Positions 3,789 through 38,574 of a stretch of 64,000 nucleotides of DNA are shown piece by piece (positions within the stretch are counted from its first letter, which is position 1; each line of letters opens with the position of its first letter). A model generated the notes under the pieces. The model searched no databases. It was not told the DNA's origin and was given only the letters and a program-made list of their open reading frames with translations. The DNA is from Gammaproteobacteria bacterium. GTDB lineage: Bacteria > Pseudomonadota > Gammaproteobacteria > CAJXQU01. Position numbers and translations under genes: made by a program. Location: assembly GCA_965224825.1 (NCBI GenBank), contig CBDDAG010000001.1:691598-755597 (forward strand), written 5' to 3'.

Positions 3789-4733
3789 ATGTATTTACAA
3801 CATTTTCGTTTAACAGAATTACCTTTTGGTATCACACCAGATACTTCATTTTTTATGAATCGTTCCGGTTATCGGGATGCGCTCAATGTCATGAAAGTGG
3901 CATTGGATATGGGTGAGGGATTTCTCAAGGTTACCGGTGAAGTCGGAACCGGGAAAACATTATTATGCCGGGCGCTGATCAATAATCTCGGTGACGAATA
4001 TGTGACCGCTTATGTCCCCAATCCTTACCTGACACCAGAATCATTATTCCTGACCATTGCTGACGAATTAGGTATTCGTTATATGCCGAATATCAAGCAG
4101 CACGCCTTGCTGAAACGCATTACTTGGTCCTTATTGAAAATGCGTAAAGATGGTAAGCGGGTTGTGCTATGTCTTGATGAAGCGCAAGCAATGCCGATCG
4201 AAACACTGGAAACACTTCGCCTTCTGACTAACCTCGAAACTGAAAAGCGTAAATTGATCCAGGTGGTGTTATTTGGACAACCAGAGCTGGATGATGTGTT
4301 GGCAGAACCTTCTATTCGACAACTTCGTCAACGTATTACTTTTTCCTACAAACTGGCACCATTAAATCGTGATGGGATGAAACGATATCTTGATCATCGT
4401 CTTAGCATAGCAGGCTATATGGATGGTGATATGTTTGATCAGGATTCGCTTGAATTACTCTATGTTGCCAGTCGTGGTATTCCAAGGTTGGTTAATATTC
4501 TTGCGCACAAAGCGATGATCGTAGCCTATGGTGTTGGTGATCTGATTGTGACTCGTAAGCACATGCGTGTGTCGATCGAAGACACAGATGATGCACGTCG
4601 TTGGCATGAAAAATCAGCACGAAAAAGAGATCGGGTTATGCGTTGGGCCTATGGTACGTTTGGAACATTTGCTCTGATCAGCCTGGTTGTCTTTGGTTTG
4701 AACTCACCGGATGTAATGGCGCTGATAAAATGA
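3789..4733 (+). CDS. mshM: MSHA biogenesis protein MshM (ExeA-like AAA ATPase)
   Basis: Walker A GEVGTGKT, Walker B VLCLDEAQ, ExeA/GspA-like architecture, and a C-terminal TM segment. Confidence 0.8.
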   Translation: MYLQHFRLTELPFGITPDTSFFMNRSGYRDALNVMKVALDMGEGFLKVTGEVGTGKTLLCRALINNLGDEYVTAYVPNPYLTPESLFLTIADELGIRYMPNIKQHALLKRITWSLLKMRKDGKRVVLCLDEAQAMPIETLETLRLLTNLETEKRKLIQVVLFGQPELDDVLAEPSIRQLRQRITFSYKLAPLNRDGMKRYLDHRLSIAGYMDGDMFDQDSLELLYVASRGIPRLVNILAHKAMIVAYGVGDLIVTRKHMRVSIEDTDDARRWHEKSARKRDRVMRWAYGTFGTFALISLVVFGLNSPDVMALIK

Positions 4734-32111: not shown

Positions 32112-34715
32112 TTAACCTATAGCGGCCAATTTCGCCGGAGCTTCAGCTGCTTTTTCAGTATATTCCGGAACTTCATCGAAATTCAGGTAGCGATAGATAT
32201 CATCTGCCATCGGATCGATTTGGCTAGCGTATTCCATATACTCTTCACGCGTCGGAATTTTACCGAGGATTGAGGCCACAGCAGCGAGTTCAGCTGAAGA
32301 CAGGTAAACATCTGCACCATCACCAAGACGATTCGGGAAGTTACGAGTCGAGGTTGAAACAACCGTCGATTTGGCTTCAACACGCGCCTGATTACCCATG
32401 CACAGTGAACAACCCGGCATTTCAGTTCGTGCACCGGCTTTACCGTAGATGCTGTAGTAGCCTTCCGCAGTCAATTGAGCTTCATCCATTTTCGTTGGAG
32501 GAGCGACCCAGAGACGTGTTGGAATTGTCTTGCCATAAGCTTCGAGCAATTTACCCGCCGCACGGAAATGACCAATGTTCGTCATACATGAACCGAGGAA
32601 TACTTCGTCGATCTTCGTACCAGCAACATCAGCCAGCGTTTTCACATCATCCGGATCATTCGGGCAGCACAGAATCGGTTCCTTGATTTCGCTGACGTCG
32701 ATTTCGATCACCGTGTGGTATTCAGCATCGGCATCGGCTTCCATCAATTGTGGATCTTTCAGCCATTCTTCCATTGCTGCTGCACGACGTTCCAGCGTAC
32801 GTGGATCACCGTAATCATTCGCGATCATCCAACGGAGCATGATGATGTTTGATTCCAGATATTCAATGATCGGTTCTTTGTTCAGTTTGATCGAGCAACC
32901 AGCGGCTGATCGTTCGGCAGAAGCATCGGATAATTCAAACGCTTGCTCAACTTTCAGATCAGGCAGGCCTTCGATTTCTAGAACACGGCCAGAGAAGACA
33001 TTTTTCTTGCCCTGTTTCTCAACCGTCAGCAGACCCATTTCGATCGCTTTCAATGGAATTGCATTCACCAGATCACGCAGCGTAATACCCGGCTGCATTT
33101 CACCACTGAAACGAACCAGAACAGATTCCGGCATATCCAGTGGCATAACGCCAGTCGCAGCAGCAAATGCCACCAGACCAGAACCCGCAGGGAAAGAAAT
33201 ACCGATTGGGAAACGTGTATGCGAATCACCACCCGTACCGACAGTATCAGGCAGCAACATGCGGTTTAGCCATGAATGGATAACACCATCGCCCGGACGC
33301 AGGGCAACGCCGCCCCGCGTCATGATGAAATCAGGCAATGTGTGATGCGTGTTCACGTCGATAGGTTTTGGATAAGCAGCCGTGTGACAGAAAGACTGCA
33401 TCGTCAGATCAGCCGAGAAACCAAGACAGGCCAGATCTTTCAGCTCATCACGCGTCATCGGGCCGGTAGTATCTTGCGATCCAACCGTTGTCATTTTAGG
33501 CTCACAATAAGTACCCGGACGAATGCCATCTACGCCACAAGCTTTGCCGACCATTTTCTGTGCCAGCGTGAAACCTTTGCCCGTATCTACAGCAGGAACC
33601 GGTTTACGGAACAGATCAGATTCAGACAAGCCCAGCGCTTCGCGAGCACGCGTTGTCAGGCCTCGACCAATGATCAGAGGGATACGACCACCGGCACGCG
33701 CTTCGTCGAGAATTACGTCTGTTTTCAGACCAAACTCACAGATCGTTTCGCCACTGTCAGCATTCTTCACCAGGCCTTCAAAAGGATAGATGTCGATCAC
33801 ATCACCCATGTTCAGCTTATCTACATCACATTCGATCGGTAATGCGCCAGCATCTTCCAGTGTATTAAAGAAGATCGGAGCGATTTTCGCACCGATGCAA
33901 TAACCACCAGCGCGCTTGTTTGGAATGAACGGAATATCGTCACCCATGTGCCACAGCACAGAGTTAACCGCCGATTTACGCGAAGAACCCGTACCTACTA
34001 CGTCACCCACATAAGCCAGCGGATGACCTTTTTCTTTCAATGTTTCGATCAGTTTGATCGGACCAATCTCACCTTGCTTATCGGGTGTAATACCATCGCG
34101 TTCCATCTTCAACATTGCCAGCGCATGCAGAGGAATATCCGGTCGCGACCATGCATCCGGAGCAGGGGAGAGATCATCGGTATTTGTTTCGCCAGTGACT
34201 TTGAACACCGTAACGGTGATCTTTTCAGCCAATTCAGGTTTGCTGGTGAACCATTCGCCTTCAGCCCATGAAGTGACGATCTGCTTCGCATAATCATTTC
34301 CGGCATCCATTTTTTCTTTCACATCATGGAAAGCATCAAACATCAGCAAGGTGTGCGTCAGCGCTGTAACAGCAGTCGGAGCGATTTCATCATCATCCAA
34401 TGCATCAACCAGCGGCTCGATGTTATAACCACCGAGCATCGTGCCCAGCAATTCAGTCGCTTTAACCTTGTCGATCAAAGGAGAACTTGCGTCCCCTTTC
34501 GTGATCGCAGCCAAAAAGCCAGCCTTCACATAAGCGGCCTGATCAACACCAGCGGGAATACGATTAGTCAGCAGATCAAGAATGAAATCTTCCTCACCCT
34601 TCGGTGGATTCTTCAGTAATTCAACCAGATCAGCGGTTTGTTCAGGCGAAAGCGGCTGAGGAACAACCCCTTCAGCAGCCCGTTCTTCGACATGTTTGCG
34701 ATAAGCTTCAAGCAC
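32112..34715 (-). CDS. acnB: aconitate hydratase B (bifunctional aconitase / 2-methylisocitrate dehydratase)
   Basis: [23 protein letters not shown]-terminus, 867 aa, and Fe-S cysteines in the C-terminal domain. Confidence 0.92.
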
Positions 34716-34919
34716 GATAATTTTCTCCAGAGTTTGTCGGCAACATCCTTGCTGCCAATTGATATTATATTGTTATAAAAGTGAACTCTCTATTATAGAG
34801 GATTTTTGGGGAGAATCGTAGATGAGTTGGGCTGGTTGTGACAAAGAAAAACCTTGTCGTCGCCAATAAATAGTGATTATCTTTATAAGATGTAGGAGCT
34901 TTTTTTATTTACATGAAAT

Positions 34920-36686
34920 TTATTTAACTGAATCGTAATGTGTAATGGCGGCAGAAATACGGTCTAAGAGAGGCTTTAGTCCATTAAAATTAATAGAGCT
35001 TTTCTGTGCTTTAATAACATGTTTTGCAAATGTGATCTTACTCAAATCGGTTTCATCATTTCGTTTATCAACTGTATTAAAGCATTTTCCATTGTGCTTA
35101 ATTAACTGTGTTGCGTTATCAAATAGACATTCTATGTCAGTCTCATCACCTGTTGGGCTTAATGGAGATAAAACAATATACAAATTATGTATTACATGAA
35201 TAAAATCTGCGTTGTGAAAATCATCTTTCTTTAGAGTAGTGGGTACACAGTATGTTGAGTCATTTTTTTTAAGTTTATTAGCTATGGCATCTGAGAAACC
35301 TGAATCATGATCTAACACGATAATAACTGGATATTGAGGTTTTGGTGCTTTATAGAAAACGTAATGTTTATCAAACTTATCAATGAAACTATAAAGATAT
35401 GATGTACCACCATGAAGTTGTAATAAAAATTTCGTGCGCTTTGAATACTCAACAAAACGGATTAGCAGTTTATAAGCACTATCTTTAGTTTTAGCGTCAG
35501 CGAGTTTTGGATAATCTTTTGCTAACTCACTAATTGCAGATTTCAGATAAATATTATCAGTTTTTCCTTCAGTTAGGATTGTTGGCGTGATATTTCCATA
35601 GAAAAATCGGTAGTATAAAAACTTGCTAAAAGTTTTTTCTCTGCCGCTTAGTAAAGGAATTGTATCCTTTCCATGTTTCGCTAAAGCATATACAGGGTTC
35701 AGCGGTGGCTTTTGTCGTAAACGATTAAATAGATCCACTTGGTCGATAAAGTTTAATTGACCTTCTAGTTCGTTAATATTGCCATCCATTTGATCATCGG
35801 CAGCTTTCTTGATAAATGCACCTGTATGAAATAAAGAATGGCATTGTGATTTAGCTGTGCGCCAATATTCTTTTTTTACATTGGGTTTTTTATTTACAAT
35901 TAGGCCTGTTACATCTTGTCTGGAATCTTTGTACTGAATACGTGTTTTGTTATTATTTATAGAAAAACCAGCTCGTATTATTTCGTTTTTTAGTTTTTTA
36001 CCCGCAATATATTCACCGCCCTCTTGTCGCATGATTGGAGGAGGGAAAATAGACTCACGGGTAGAAAAGGTTATATCGTCTGCATATCTTGAATAAGTAC
36101 ACGAATACTTTTTAGCTAATGATGCAAGCCGTATATCAAGTGAATGAGTAATTAGATTTGTTATGACAGGCGAGCAAGGGCTGCCCTGTGGAAGCTTGTT
36201 ATCATAGCAAGCAATTTGAGCGATAACTGTAGCAATATCAGGACTGAGTTCAAAATTCTTATTTTTTATAAAGAAGCCCCTGACCCGACCAAAATTAAAA
36301 CTATCAAAGAAATTGTTAAGGTCAATGTTAAGTACGTTACTTTTATTCAAGTGCATCATTGCATTGGTAAAAATTGAACGTTCTCGAACAAAACCATGTG
36401 CTAAAGTTGATCTCTTGATTTTGGGGTTTGGGTATTTAACTCGGTTAATTTCATCAATACAATCTAGTAATAAATTAGAAAGTCTTGACTGTAAACTTTT
36501 AAGCTGACCTGTGGGAGCGCATATTATGCGTTTATTTCCATTTCGCTTTGGAATTTCAAACTGAACATATTTGTCAGCAGGTTTTAATATGTAGAGGGTA
36601 TAAGTAAGAGCTGAAGGTTTTACTCCTAGTAATTTAGCTAATGCTGATTTAGTAGTAACTTTTTTTAGCGCATCTAACTTATTCAT
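34920..36686 (-). CDS. retron-type reverse transcriptase fused to a C-terminal Toprim domain (Ec67/Eco2-like)
   Basis: RT motifs NIDLNNFFDSF, LPQGSPCSPVITNL and RYADDITFS (YADD). The C-terminus has ILTEGKTD (Toprim Glu) and VIIVLDHDSG (DxD). 588 aa. The AT-rich coding sequence sits directly downstream of an inverted-repeat-bounded ncRNA. Confidence 0.85.
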   Translation of the reverse strand: MNKLDALKKVTTKSALAKLLGVKPSALTYTLYILKPADKYVQFEIPKRNGNKRIICAPTGQLKSLQSRLSNLLLDCIDEINRVKYPNPKIKRSTLAHGFVRERSIFTNAMMHLNKSNVLNIDLNNFFDSFNFGRVRGFFIKNKNFELSPDIATVIAQIACYDNKLPQGSPCSPVITNLITHSLDIRLASLAKKYSCTYSRYADDITFSTRESIFPPPIMRQEGGEYIAGKKLKNEIIRAGFSINNNKTRIQYKDSRQDVTGLIVNKKPNVKKEYWRTAKSQCHSLFHTGAFIKKAADDQMDGNINELEGQLNFIDQVDLFNRLRQKPPLNPVYALAKHGKDTIPLLSGREKTFSKFLYYRFFYGNITPTILTEGKTDNIYLKSAISELAKDYPKLADAKTKDSAYKLLIRFVEYSKRTKFLLQLHGGTSYLYSFIDKFDKHYVFYKAPKPQYPVIIVLDHDSGFSDAIANKLKKNDSTYCVPTTLKKDDFHNADFIHVIHNLYIVLSPLSPTGDETDIECLFDNATQLIKHNGKCFNTVDKRNDETDLSKITFAKHVIKAQKSSINFNGLKPLLDRISAAITHYDSVK

Positions 36687-36715
36687 ATAGCTAAATTAAA
36701 TCTATCAATTGAAGT

Positions 36716-36840
36716 GGCTTATGGGCACTCTTACGCAATACGCACGCTAAACGCTGAAACGTAACACTAGCATAATGGCAATCCAGTCGGACTTTTTTTT
36801 CACTGATCGCGATGCGCGACCCAAAATCTGCCCATAAGCC
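36716..36840 (-). ncRNA. candidate retron msr-msd non-coding RNA (125 nt between a1/a2 inverted repeats)
   Basis: Perfect 12-bp inverted repeats ggcttatgggca (36716-36727) and tgcccataagcc (36829-36840). a2 ends 29 nt upstream of the RT start. An internal GUCGCG-CAU-CGCGA hairpin lies right after a1. Confidence 0.55.
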
Positions 36841-36846
36841 GACATC

Positions 36847-36875
36847 AATGTATCAAGTATTTATGGTGCCATCAA
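36847..36875 (-). promoter_or_regulatory. sigma70-like promoter for the retron ncRNA/RT transcript
   Basis: On the minus strand, TTGATG, a 17-nt spacer, TACATT, then 6 nt to the first G of a1. Confidence 0.4.
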
Positions 36876-36917
36876 ACTAATTTGATATGGAAAAGGGGAC
36901 GCGCCTAGAGTTCAGGC

Positions 36918-36944
36918 ATAAAAAAAGGCATCCGAAGATGCCTT
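36918..36944 (-). terminator. rho-independent terminator of the cupin gene
   Basis: aaggcatc-cgaa-gatgcctt hairpin followed on the minus strand by 7 U. Confidence 0.5.
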
Positions 36945-36951
36945 AATCCAT

Positions 36952-37230
36952 TTAGAAGTGCATGTAGTGCTTTTTCAATGTTTTAGTTACTTGCCAGACG
37001 CTTTTTAAGCCGTCAGGGAAGATAACATAATCACCGGGTACGATAGTTACTGGCTCACCACCATCTGGAGTGACAACAATTTCACCCTCTAAGATGTATG
37101 AGCGTTCGCTTTTGTCGTCAAAATCAAGACGAAACTCAGAGACCGGGCAGTCCCAAATATTCCAACCTGAAACGCCTAATTCTTGTAAACGTGCTTCACT
37201 TAAGTTTTTTTCAATAATAATTTCTGGCAT
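36952..37230 (-). CDS. small cupin-fold protein (DUF861/EutQ-like cupin)
   Basis: 92 aa, with a beta-rich GDYVIFPDG motif typical of single-domain cupins. Confidence 0.55.
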   Translation of the reverse strand: MPEIIIEKNLSEARLQELGVSGWNIWDCPVSEFRLDFDDKSERSYILEGEIVVTPDGGEPVTIVPGDYVIFPDGLKSVWQVTKTLKKHYMHF

Positions 37231-37404: not shown

Positions 37405-38574
37405 CTATTCTTTTCCTTTGAAAATGTTAGCAACCTGGTTGTATTTCAATGATGTAATCCCATCATCAAACTTAAATCCATCACCCGAGTAGACAAGGTA
37501 GGCTTCTGCTATTTTCGGCGAAAGCTCGACAATTCTTTTTAGTCCTTTTAGCAAAGATGATTTATAGGTCGAGCTGGACTTTATTTCTATTGCCACAAGT
37601 TTTCTTCCTTGTTGATAGAGTATGTCGGCTTCATTGCCATTGCTGTCTCTGTAGAAATACAACTTCGGTAATCTACCTTTGTTGAGCTGTGTTTTTAAGC
37701 ATTCTATGATAATCAAGTTTTCGAATAGATTACCCACTAAAGGATCTCTTGATACTTGCGCAGGGGTTTCTATCCCTAATAAAAAGGAGAGTAAACCAAC
37801 ATCCATAAAATAATATTTGGGTGATTTGATCACACGCTTACCAAAATTTTCGAAATAAGGGTTTAATCTATAGATCACAAAGGAGGCTTCCAGAATTGAG
37901 AGCCAGCTTTTAATCGTTTTTGCAGAAACACCGACATCATTTGCCAACGATGTATAGTCCATTAGCTGTCCAATCCGCCCGGCCAGTAAGTTCATAAATT
38001 TTTCAAATAATGAAAAATCTTTCAGGTTGATGAGCTGCCGAACATCTCTTTCTACATATGTTTGATAATAGTTTGAATAGGCCTGAGTTGGTCGTTGGTT
38101 TTGATCATAAATGCGCGGCAGGAAGCCTTGATAAATATAATCCTGAGGTTGTTCAAATTCGATATTAGCTTCGGTTAACTCTGCAATTGAAAAGGGTAAC
38201 AAGTTAAGAATACTTGTTCTGCCAGCCAAAGACTGGGTGATGGCTTCTCGTAATTCCAGTTGGTGAGAGCCTGTGAGTACAAATTGTCCATTCGTTTGCT
38301 GCTCATCAACAATTGTCTGGATGTAACTTATTAGATCAGGAACTCGTTGAATTTCATCTAATATGACGTTTGACTTGAACTGAGCCAGAAATGCTTTTGG
38401 ATCATCAGTAGCAAACTGGCGTGTTTCGGGATTTTCAAGGTTGCTGTATTGGTAAGATGGTAATGCCATTTTTGCCAATGTCGTTTTCCCAGCTTGCCTG
38501 GGGCCTAAAAGAGTAACAACAGGATATTCATCCAGTTGTTTGTGGAATTCTGATTCTATGTGTCTTTTGATCAT
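37405..38574 (-). CDS. AAA+ ATPase with a C-terminal PD-(D/E)xK-like DUF4143 domain (COG1373 family)
   Basis: Walker A GPRQAGKTT, Walker B VILDEIQ, and a C-terminal D...EADIL...VAIEIKSS nuclease-like motif. Confidence 0.8.
   Translation of the reverse strand: MIKRHIESEFHKQLDEYPVVTLLGPRQAGKTTLAKMALPSYQYSNLENPETRQFATDDPKAFLAQFKSNVILDEIQRVPDLISYIQTIVDEQQTNGQFVLTGSHQLELREAITQSLAGRTSILNLLPFSIAELTEANIEFEQPQDYIYQGFLPRIYDQNQRPTQAYSNYYQTYVERDVRQLINLKDFSLFEKFMNLLAGRIGQLMDYTSLANDVGVSAKTIKSWLSILEASFVIYRLNPYFENFGKRVIKSPKYYFMDVGLLSFLLGIETPAQVSRDPLVGNLFENLIIIECLKTQLNKGRLPKLYFYRDSNGNEADILYQQGRKLVAIEIKSSSTYKSSLLKGLKRIVELSPKIAEAYLVYSGDGFKFDDGITSLKYNQVANIFKGKE

Follow-up and report, generated by a model that had tools for sequence, protein, structure and literature searches.

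A probable msr-msd RNA gene of a type I-C (Ec67/Eco2-family) retron preceding an RT-Toprim gene

In the 64-kb stretch of DNA analysed here (the window), an open reading frame for a reverse transcriptase (RT) is preceded on the minus strand by a short, perfect inverted repeat. A preliminary description took the segment bounded by this repeat for the msr-msd RNA gene of a retron, that is, the template and primer from which the RT makes msDNA. The question is whether the repeat and the letters between its arms do encode such an RNA and, if so, to which retrons it belongs and where its working parts lie.

The RT gene, the repeat and their relatives

The protein encoded next to the repeat points to a known family. 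The NCBIfam model NF038237 (retron_Ec67_fus, 'retron Ec67 family RNA-directed DNA polymerase/endonuclease') covers residues 4–584 of 588 with 756.8 bits, where the cut-off is 450, and the PADLOC model RT-Toprim_I-C matches residues 1–586 with an E-value of 6.6e-226. The best PDB matches are retron RTs throughout, the closest being 'Retron Ec67 protein' (9I2F, 9LM3; E 3.8e-144, residues 2–584); RVT_1 is the only Pfam match. Identity to the Ec67 RT is 43% over the full length. The features first needed are the following.

34920–36686, minus strand: RT-Toprim fusion gene, 588 aa, type I-C, Ec67/Eco2 family, from PADLOC, NCBIfam and PDB matches
36687–36715, minus strand: leader from a2 to the RT start codon, 29 nt and AU-rich, by sequence reading
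36716–36727, minus strand: a2 (IRa2), 3′ arm of the terminal inverted repeat, TGCCCATAAGCC, in RNA UGCCCAUAAGCC
36829–36840, minus strand: a1 (IRa1), 5′ arm of the terminal inverted repeat, GGCTTATGGGCA, in RNA GGCUUAUGGGCA

The RT motifs NAMMH (residues 108–112), YADD (201–204) and VTG (259–261) are present and are invariant among the relatives. The Toprim motifs EGKTD (373–377) and DHD (459–461) align with E374 and D460/D462 of Ec67, and F43 is the counterpart of Eco2 F46, the residue whose aromatic ring stacks on a flipped template base. The ORF is apparently intact, being of full length with every catalytic motif in place. The combination of EGxxD in motif IV with DxD in motif V distinguishes retron subtypes I-C1 and I-C3 from I-C2, which has DxE (Mestre et al. 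2020, PMC7736814). Judged by these motifs, the window protein belongs to the I-C1/I-C3 group, I-C2 being excluded by the DxD.

Sequence reading and a repeat finder agree that a1 and a2 are complementary at 12 of 12 positions, so the perfect 12-bp repeat that had been reported is real. The arms had been called 125 nt apart; this figure is correct as the total span, but the gap between the arms is 101 nt. The end of a2 (36716) lies 29 nt ahead of the ATG (36686) of the 588-aa ORF, in keeping with the classic retron layout that had been noted. Reading of the sequence reveals no obvious Shine-Dalgarno sequence in this 29-nt leader and no T-run 3′ of a2. The preliminary description had named structure prediction for the 125-nt transcript as a check: the predicted fold has a free energy of −48.4 kcal/mol (z = −3.96), which none of 200 shuffled sequences equals, and both of its ends are paired.

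Perfect 12-nt inverted repeats with a span of 60–260 nt occur six times in the window, as against 0.92 in shuffles. The other five lie at 4608/4813, 17164/17358, 49200/49343, 59375/59460 and 61098/61262. The chance expectation for such a repeat within 330 nt upstream of the RT gene is about 0.005–0.03. It is thus unlikely, though possible, that a repeat should stand before the RT ORF by chance, and the comparative evidence is the decisive part. A 30-nt imperfect repeat in the same region (36793–36822 with 36896–36925, 73% complementary) was also considered and was judged fortuitous; it is unconserved and overlaps the promoter.

Relatives of the RT-Toprim protein number in the thousands in a protein search, and several are named 'retron Ec67 family'. 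A scan of species-representative genomes returned 80 of 229 confirmed loci, which span Vibrio, Pseudomonas, Halomonas, Shewanella, Yersinia, Zetaproteobacteria, Bdellovibrionales and others. Among the 76 loci that retain upstream sequence, the longest perfect repeat in the 330 nt before the RT is the a1/a2 homologue in 71; these homologues have arms of 9–15 bp, span 117–147 nt and end 13–75 nt before the RT start. The remaining five, together with locus L001, carry the same element with G-U pairs or single mismatches, and in L001 a different repeat scored above the a1/a2 homologue.

Conservation and covariation of the arms in homologous loci had been made the touchstone of the proposal, and both are found in an alignment of 78 sequences, comprising the window and 77 other loci, Ec67 among them. 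From this alignment RNAalifold arrives at a structure that contains both the terminal duplex and the msr hairpin. Counted against a user-specified structure in the 78 loci, 99.5% of the cells are paired in a1/a2 and 99.1% in the msr hairpin; the percentage for the arms is biased upward because in the homologues they were first located by an inverted-repeat search. Compensatory double changes occur in 11 of the 12 pairs of a1/a2, the twelfth being an invariant A-U pair, and in 6 of the 7 pairs of the msr hairpin. Overall, double changes are seen in 22 of 24 pairs, whereas shuffling gives a mean of 13.1 (0/500 reach the observed value) and slid controls give 6–15. The 78 loci have 23 distinct a1 sequences, each complementary to its own a2, and G-U pairs in several loci fit a duplex at the RNA level. 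The duplex GGCUUAUGGGCA itself recurs identically in 30/78 loci from different bacterial classes. Conserved blocks next to the arms, GCAGAUUU and on the opposite side GCGUAAGAGUGCC, fix their position; these blocks and an independent model search argue against circularity.

That search used a covariance model, R1, trained on the 77 other loci, including the characterised Ec67 RNA, with the window left out. Applied to the 64-kb window, it finds 36713–36843 on the minus strand, end to end, with 117.3 bits and an E-value of 3.9e-28; its only other match in the window is the reverse-complement shadow of the element at 17.8 bits. Comparison with a covariance model, another check that had been proposed, therefore singles out the msr-msd element. 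The element has the features of the family's ncRNAs: one msr hairpin, the GCAGAUUU and GAGUGCC blocks, and a length in the range of about 125–150 nt. Rfam yields no match to the retron region at E ≤ 10. Since the validated Ec67 RNA is likewise unmatched, Rfam 15 is without a model for this type of ncRNA and the null result is uninformative; at permissive thresholds only noise appeared, along with weak partial matches to sRNA terminators that are explained by the terminator of the neighbouring cupin gene. An Rfam family could be started from the 78-sequence alignment (A2) together with model R1.

The Ec67-family RT, the covariation across 78 loci and the R1 match together bear out the candidate msr-msd ncRNA. 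The segment 36840–36716 (minus strand) can with high confidence be read as the gene for the msr-msd ncRNA of a retron of type I-C (Ec67/Eco2 family), presumably co-transcribed with RT-Toprim. Retrons of the Ec67/Eco2 type are known as anti-phage systems of bacteria; the family, its architecture and its mechanism have already been described, and the window adds an ordinary member.

Anatomy of the RNA and the predicted msDNA

The landmarks of the window RNA were transferred from Eco2 through the 78-sequence alignment. In the Eco2 structure, rG15 is the branching guanosine and is 2′-5′-linked to dT1 (PMC12405507). In the Eco2 structures, rA16–rU19 form a single-stranded linker, rG20–rU42 a stem-loop and rG43–rU51 a second linker; reverse transcription stops at G52:dC67, with U51 flipped out onto F46. 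The Ec67 ncRNA sequence used for comparison matches 14 E. coli genomes at 100%, in P2-like prophage, and the matches lie directly upstream of, or overlap, genes annotated as Ec67-family RT. Positions 52–118 of this verified sequence give a 67-nt DNA that starts with T and ends with CTGCC, as published, which validates the coordinate mapping; the published rG15 and the U51/G52 point of termination are likewise reproduced. Transferred to the window, the parts are as follows.

36828, minus strand: predicted branching (priming) G, ncRNA position 13, aligned with Ec67 G15/Eco2 rG15
36822–36827, minus strand: linker AUUUU(G), ncRNA 14–19
36805–36821, minus strand: msr stem-loop GGUCGCG-CAU-CGCGAUC, 7 bp, ncRNA 20–36, homologous to Eco2 rG20–rU42
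36793–36804, minus strand: single-stranded linker AGUGAAAAAAAA with a conserved GUG, ncRNA 37–48, homologous to Eco2 ssRb
36729–36792, minus strand: predicted msd template, ncRNA 49–112, its ends set by homology
36728, minus strand: unpaired G, ncRNA 113
36716–36727, minus strand: the a1-complementary arm a2, ncRNA 114–125

The A-G-A at the branch site is invariant in 78/78 loci, and the priming guanosine is probably G36828, directly 3′ of a1. The preliminary description had looked for it in the GUCGCGCAUCGCGAUC hairpin that follows a1, with the proviso that the branching G could not be fixed by eye. That hairpin is present, as the msr stem-loop, but Eco2 rG15 aligns with G36828 and not with a base in the hairpin. 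The predicted msDNA is 64 nt long, 5′-TCTTACGCAATACGCACGCTAAACGCTGAAACGTAACACTAGCATAATGGCAATCCAGTCGGAC-3′. Its 5′ end is expected to be TCTTACGC, beginning opposite template A 36729, and its 3′ end GTCGGAC, finishing opposite template G 36792; the exact ends and the branch point, taken jointly, seem probable. The template A for dT1 is conserved in 77/78 loci and the terminal template G in 68/78. Across the family, predicted msDNA lengths run from 60 to 85 nt with a median of 65, and the ends are conserved as 5′ TCYTACGC and 3′ GGCAATCC....GGAC. The earlier expectation of a short, Ec67-like msDNA agrees with this homology-based prediction, 64 nt as compared with 67 nt in Ec67.

One position departs from the family pattern. 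The base corresponding to Eco2 rU51 (36793) is A in the window; A occurs in 3/78 loci and U in 57/78. It is possible that this A shifts or weakens the termination of reverse transcription, and with A at 36793 the exact 3′ end of the msDNA could be off by a nucleotide or two.

The predicted msDNA contains no stable hairpin: its fold has a free energy of −3.3 kcal/mol, and 173/200 shuffles fold at least as well. The predicted msDNAs of the family, Ec67 included, likewise fold as DNA no more stably than shuffled sequences (median z = −0.4). In the Eco2 structure the msDNA strands are reported to form a three-way junction and no hairpins. The requirement of a long stable hairpin in the msd DNA was accordingly dropped, as such a hairpin is absent here, in Ec67 and in most loci of the family; by these folding calculations the textbook expectation does not hold for retrons of the Ec67 type. 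At the RNA level, a candidate second hairpin, GUCC-GACU-GGAU (ncRNA 49–60), is supported only in part, being 67.7% paired in the alignment because its register differs between clades, and the segment is expected to lie within the RNA-DNA hybrid of the mature product.

Transcription, genomic setting and alternative readings

Transcription of the locus can be considered with reference to the sequences on either side of it.

36870–36875, minus strand: −35 element TTGATG, by sequence reading; a TTG at the equivalent distance is kept in homologous loci
36847–36855, minus strand: extended −10 element TG-A-TACATT, with TACATT at 36852–36847 and TG at 36855–36854
36925–36944, minus strand: intrinsic terminator of the upstream cupin gene, an 8-bp stem AAGGCATC/GATGCCTT followed by a T-run
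36952–37230: cupin_3 gene, the upstream neighbour of the retron
37405–38574, minus strand: AAA_14 + DUF4143 ATPase, 389 aa, PADLOC candidate PDC-S01 (E 1.6e-99)
32112–34715: acnB, neighbour of the RT-Toprim gene

The TTGATG-17nt-TACATT promoter is present as it had been described, with a spacer of 17 nt between the elements, and the −10 element ends 6 nt ahead of the first G of a1. With agreement at only 8 of the 12 consensus positions, the site escapes a generic sigma-70 scan, and a position-specific test of conservation across homologs was used in place of the scan. The pattern TTG-(16–18)-TAnnnT, ending 5–9 nt before a1, is found in 55/77 loci, compared with a shuffle mean of 1.1. In the 60 nt upstream of a1 the aligned loci keep, in position, a TTG, a spacer of ~17 nt and TGnTAnnTT; the promoter of the window is offset by 1 nt from the majority position. 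The start of transcription can reasonably be placed at or near 36840, the first G of a1.

The strong terminator of the cupin gene lies outside the retron RNA and bounds the transcription unit of the retron on its 5′ side. No further promoter was found ahead of the RT gene, and it follows from these two observations that the promoter at 36875–36847 drives the whole msr-msd-RT unit. Downstream of the RT gene no terminator was found, and acnB has promoter-like sites of its own.

The GC content of the RT-Toprim gene is 32–36% (34800–36600 of the window), as against 41–51% in its neighbours, including acnB, and this low value suggests horizontal acquisition. The composition suggests that the retron is an acquired cassette inserted between the cupin gene and acnB. 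An identical protein was read on four contigs in the ENA, NCBI and Logan assemblies; these are metagenome contigs. Of three of these contigs, two reach beyond the RT gene, and in both the neighbours are the same as in the window.

The PDC-S01 ATPase, a 'phage defence candidate', sits two genes upstream of the retron, and this region and the retron may form a small defence islet. Across the 80 homologous loci, neither the ATPase nor cupin nor acnB is seen again at up to 3 kb from the RT gene, and a functional link between the retron and any of the three was rejected for lack of co-occurrence. The arrangement is consistent with a self-contained single-gene retron cassette that has no conserved accessory effector gene.

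The mechanism proposed for the window retron is carried over, in all its steps, by homology from work on Eco2 (PMC12405507, PMC12916289). The msr-msd and RT-Toprim (36686–34920) would be transcribed together from the extended −10 promoter at 36875–36847, and pairing of the RNA ends through a1 and a2 would set the invariant G36828 at the foot of the duplex. The RT would bind the msr hairpin, prime from the 2′-OH of G36828, start copying at template A112 (36729) and stop at about G49 (36792). In the resulting branched RNA-DNA molecule the DNA would measure about 64 nt, and its 3′ end would stay paired with ~11 nt of msr. As a trimer joined by such msDNA, three RT-Toprim subunits would keep the Toprim nuclease caged. 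Breakdown of the msDNA by a phage nuclease (for Eco2, DenB of T-even phages) would then set the Toprim domain free, and cleavage of tRNA or other RNA by the freed domain would shut down translation and abort the infection.

A bolder extension of this mechanism seems rather unlikely. In it, I-C RTs would read a1/a2 sequence-specifically, the unstructured msd interior would be an evolving 'bait' for phage nucleases, and A36793 would shift the 3′ end of the msDNA. The proposal of a bait and of sequence-specific reading derives from the identity of GGCUUAUGGGCA in 30/78 loci and from the lack of a stable msDNA hairpin; recent horizontal spread accounts for the identity equally well.

Three other readings of the locus have to be set beside the msr-msd assignment. 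The repeat might be a chance match or the end of a mobile element, and the five other perfect 12-nt repeats of similar span, a number above the shuffle expectation, speak for this. The repeat recurs in place, with compensatory changes, in 77 other loci, and R1 matches it with an E-value of about 4e-28, which leaves this reading with no weight at all. It is also conceivable that the repeat is a cis-regulatory leader of the RT gene, an attenuator or a device of translational control, and templates no msDNA: the element forms part of the leader at the 5′ end of the RT mRNA, 29 nt before an ATG that has no clear Shine-Dalgarno sequence, and its predicted fold is stable. Its conserved blocks, however, match the Ec67 msr-msd base for base, and the Ec67 msDNA has been seen in cryo-EM maps. 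An invariant G at the branch site and a conserved A at the first template position serve no role in an attenuator, and no T-run follows a2. A purely regulatory leader is therefore very improbable.

The remaining alternative accepts the homology and holds that the retron has decayed, so that RNA and RT are still recognisable while msDNA and phage defence have been lost. The unusual A at the flipped base associated with termination (3/78 loci) and the weak consensus match of the promoter would fit such a history. They stand against an ORF of intact length, conserved catalytic residues in both RT and Toprim as well as a conserved F43, a full set of intact conserved ncRNA blocks with a high R1 score, and the occurrence of the identical protein in the same context on several independent contigs. 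Decay is only marginally easier to entertain than a regulatory leader, and a presumably functional msr-msd gene is by far the preferred reading.

Comparison with known retrons

The retron in the window can be compared with systems at increasing closeness. With Eco1 (Ec86) and other classical retrons it shares the a1/a2 duplex, a branching G at the foot of a1, one or more msr hairpins, and the NAxxH, YADD and VTG motifs of the RT. The classical retrons differ in having a separate effector protein, a longer ncRNA and a stable msd hairpin, and their RTs are distant from that of the window, with E-values of about 1e-25 over the RT domain only. More closely related RT domains are found in retron types XI (RT-protease) and XII (RT-TIR), which share the RT clade (clade 8) and for which PADLOC gives E-values of about 1e-100 over residues 4–318. 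In types XI and XII, however, the C-terminus is a protease or a TIR domain, whereas the window protein agrees from end to end with the models of Toprim fusions.

The closest characterised system is Ec67, or Eco2 (PDB 9I2F/9I2G/9S1F and 9LM3), which consists of an E. coli msr-msd RNA and an RT-Toprim fusion. The two loci share, in the 5′ part, the promoter, a1, the branching G, an AUUU linker, one msr hairpin and a linker that combines GUG with an A-rich stretch; in the 3′ part they share msd, a GAG, a2, a short leader and a single RT-Toprim gene. Their proteins align over the full length (43% identity) with YADD, F46/F43, EGKTD and DxD in common, and their RNAs have in common the blocks GCAGAUUU and GCG(U/A)A(G/A)GAGUGCC. 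The terminal duplexes differ, being GGCUUAUGGGCA (12 bp) in the window and ACGCAUGUAGGCA (13 bp with one G-U pair) in Ec67. The sequence of the msd interior is unrelated to that of Ec67, and the position of the flipped rU51 of Eco2 is occupied by A. The settings differ as well: Ec67 sits in a P2-like prophage of E. coli, and the window copy is a low-GC insert between the cupin gene and acnB in a different host, with identical copies on metagenome contigs.

Annotation of the Ec67 locus itself merits a remark. In E. coli NZ_CP027440.1 (locus L081, 3990–5930), the RefSeq CDS for the Ec67 RT has 646 aa, starts at 3990 and reads through the msr-msd (4001–4132). The characterised Ec67 protein has 586 aa and starts at 4170; the N-terminal over-extension in RefSeq hides the ncRNA gene.

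Small retrons that consist of a single gene, such as Eco2, attract practical interest as means of making single-stranded DNA in cells and of editing, and a divergent orthologue (43% identity) whose ncRNA scaffold is defined might prove useful as a further part. The window retron also offers concrete predictions, namely a branch point at 36828 and an msDNA of 64 nt. Within type I-C as defined by Mestre et al. (2020, PMC7736814), it shares the C-terminal Toprim domain with EGxxD and DxD, the single gene and the upstream ncRNA, and no defining difference from that type is apparent. Type I-C gains, from a non-enterobacterial genome, one well-delimited and apparently intact retron that comprises promoter, msr, msd and RT-Toprim.
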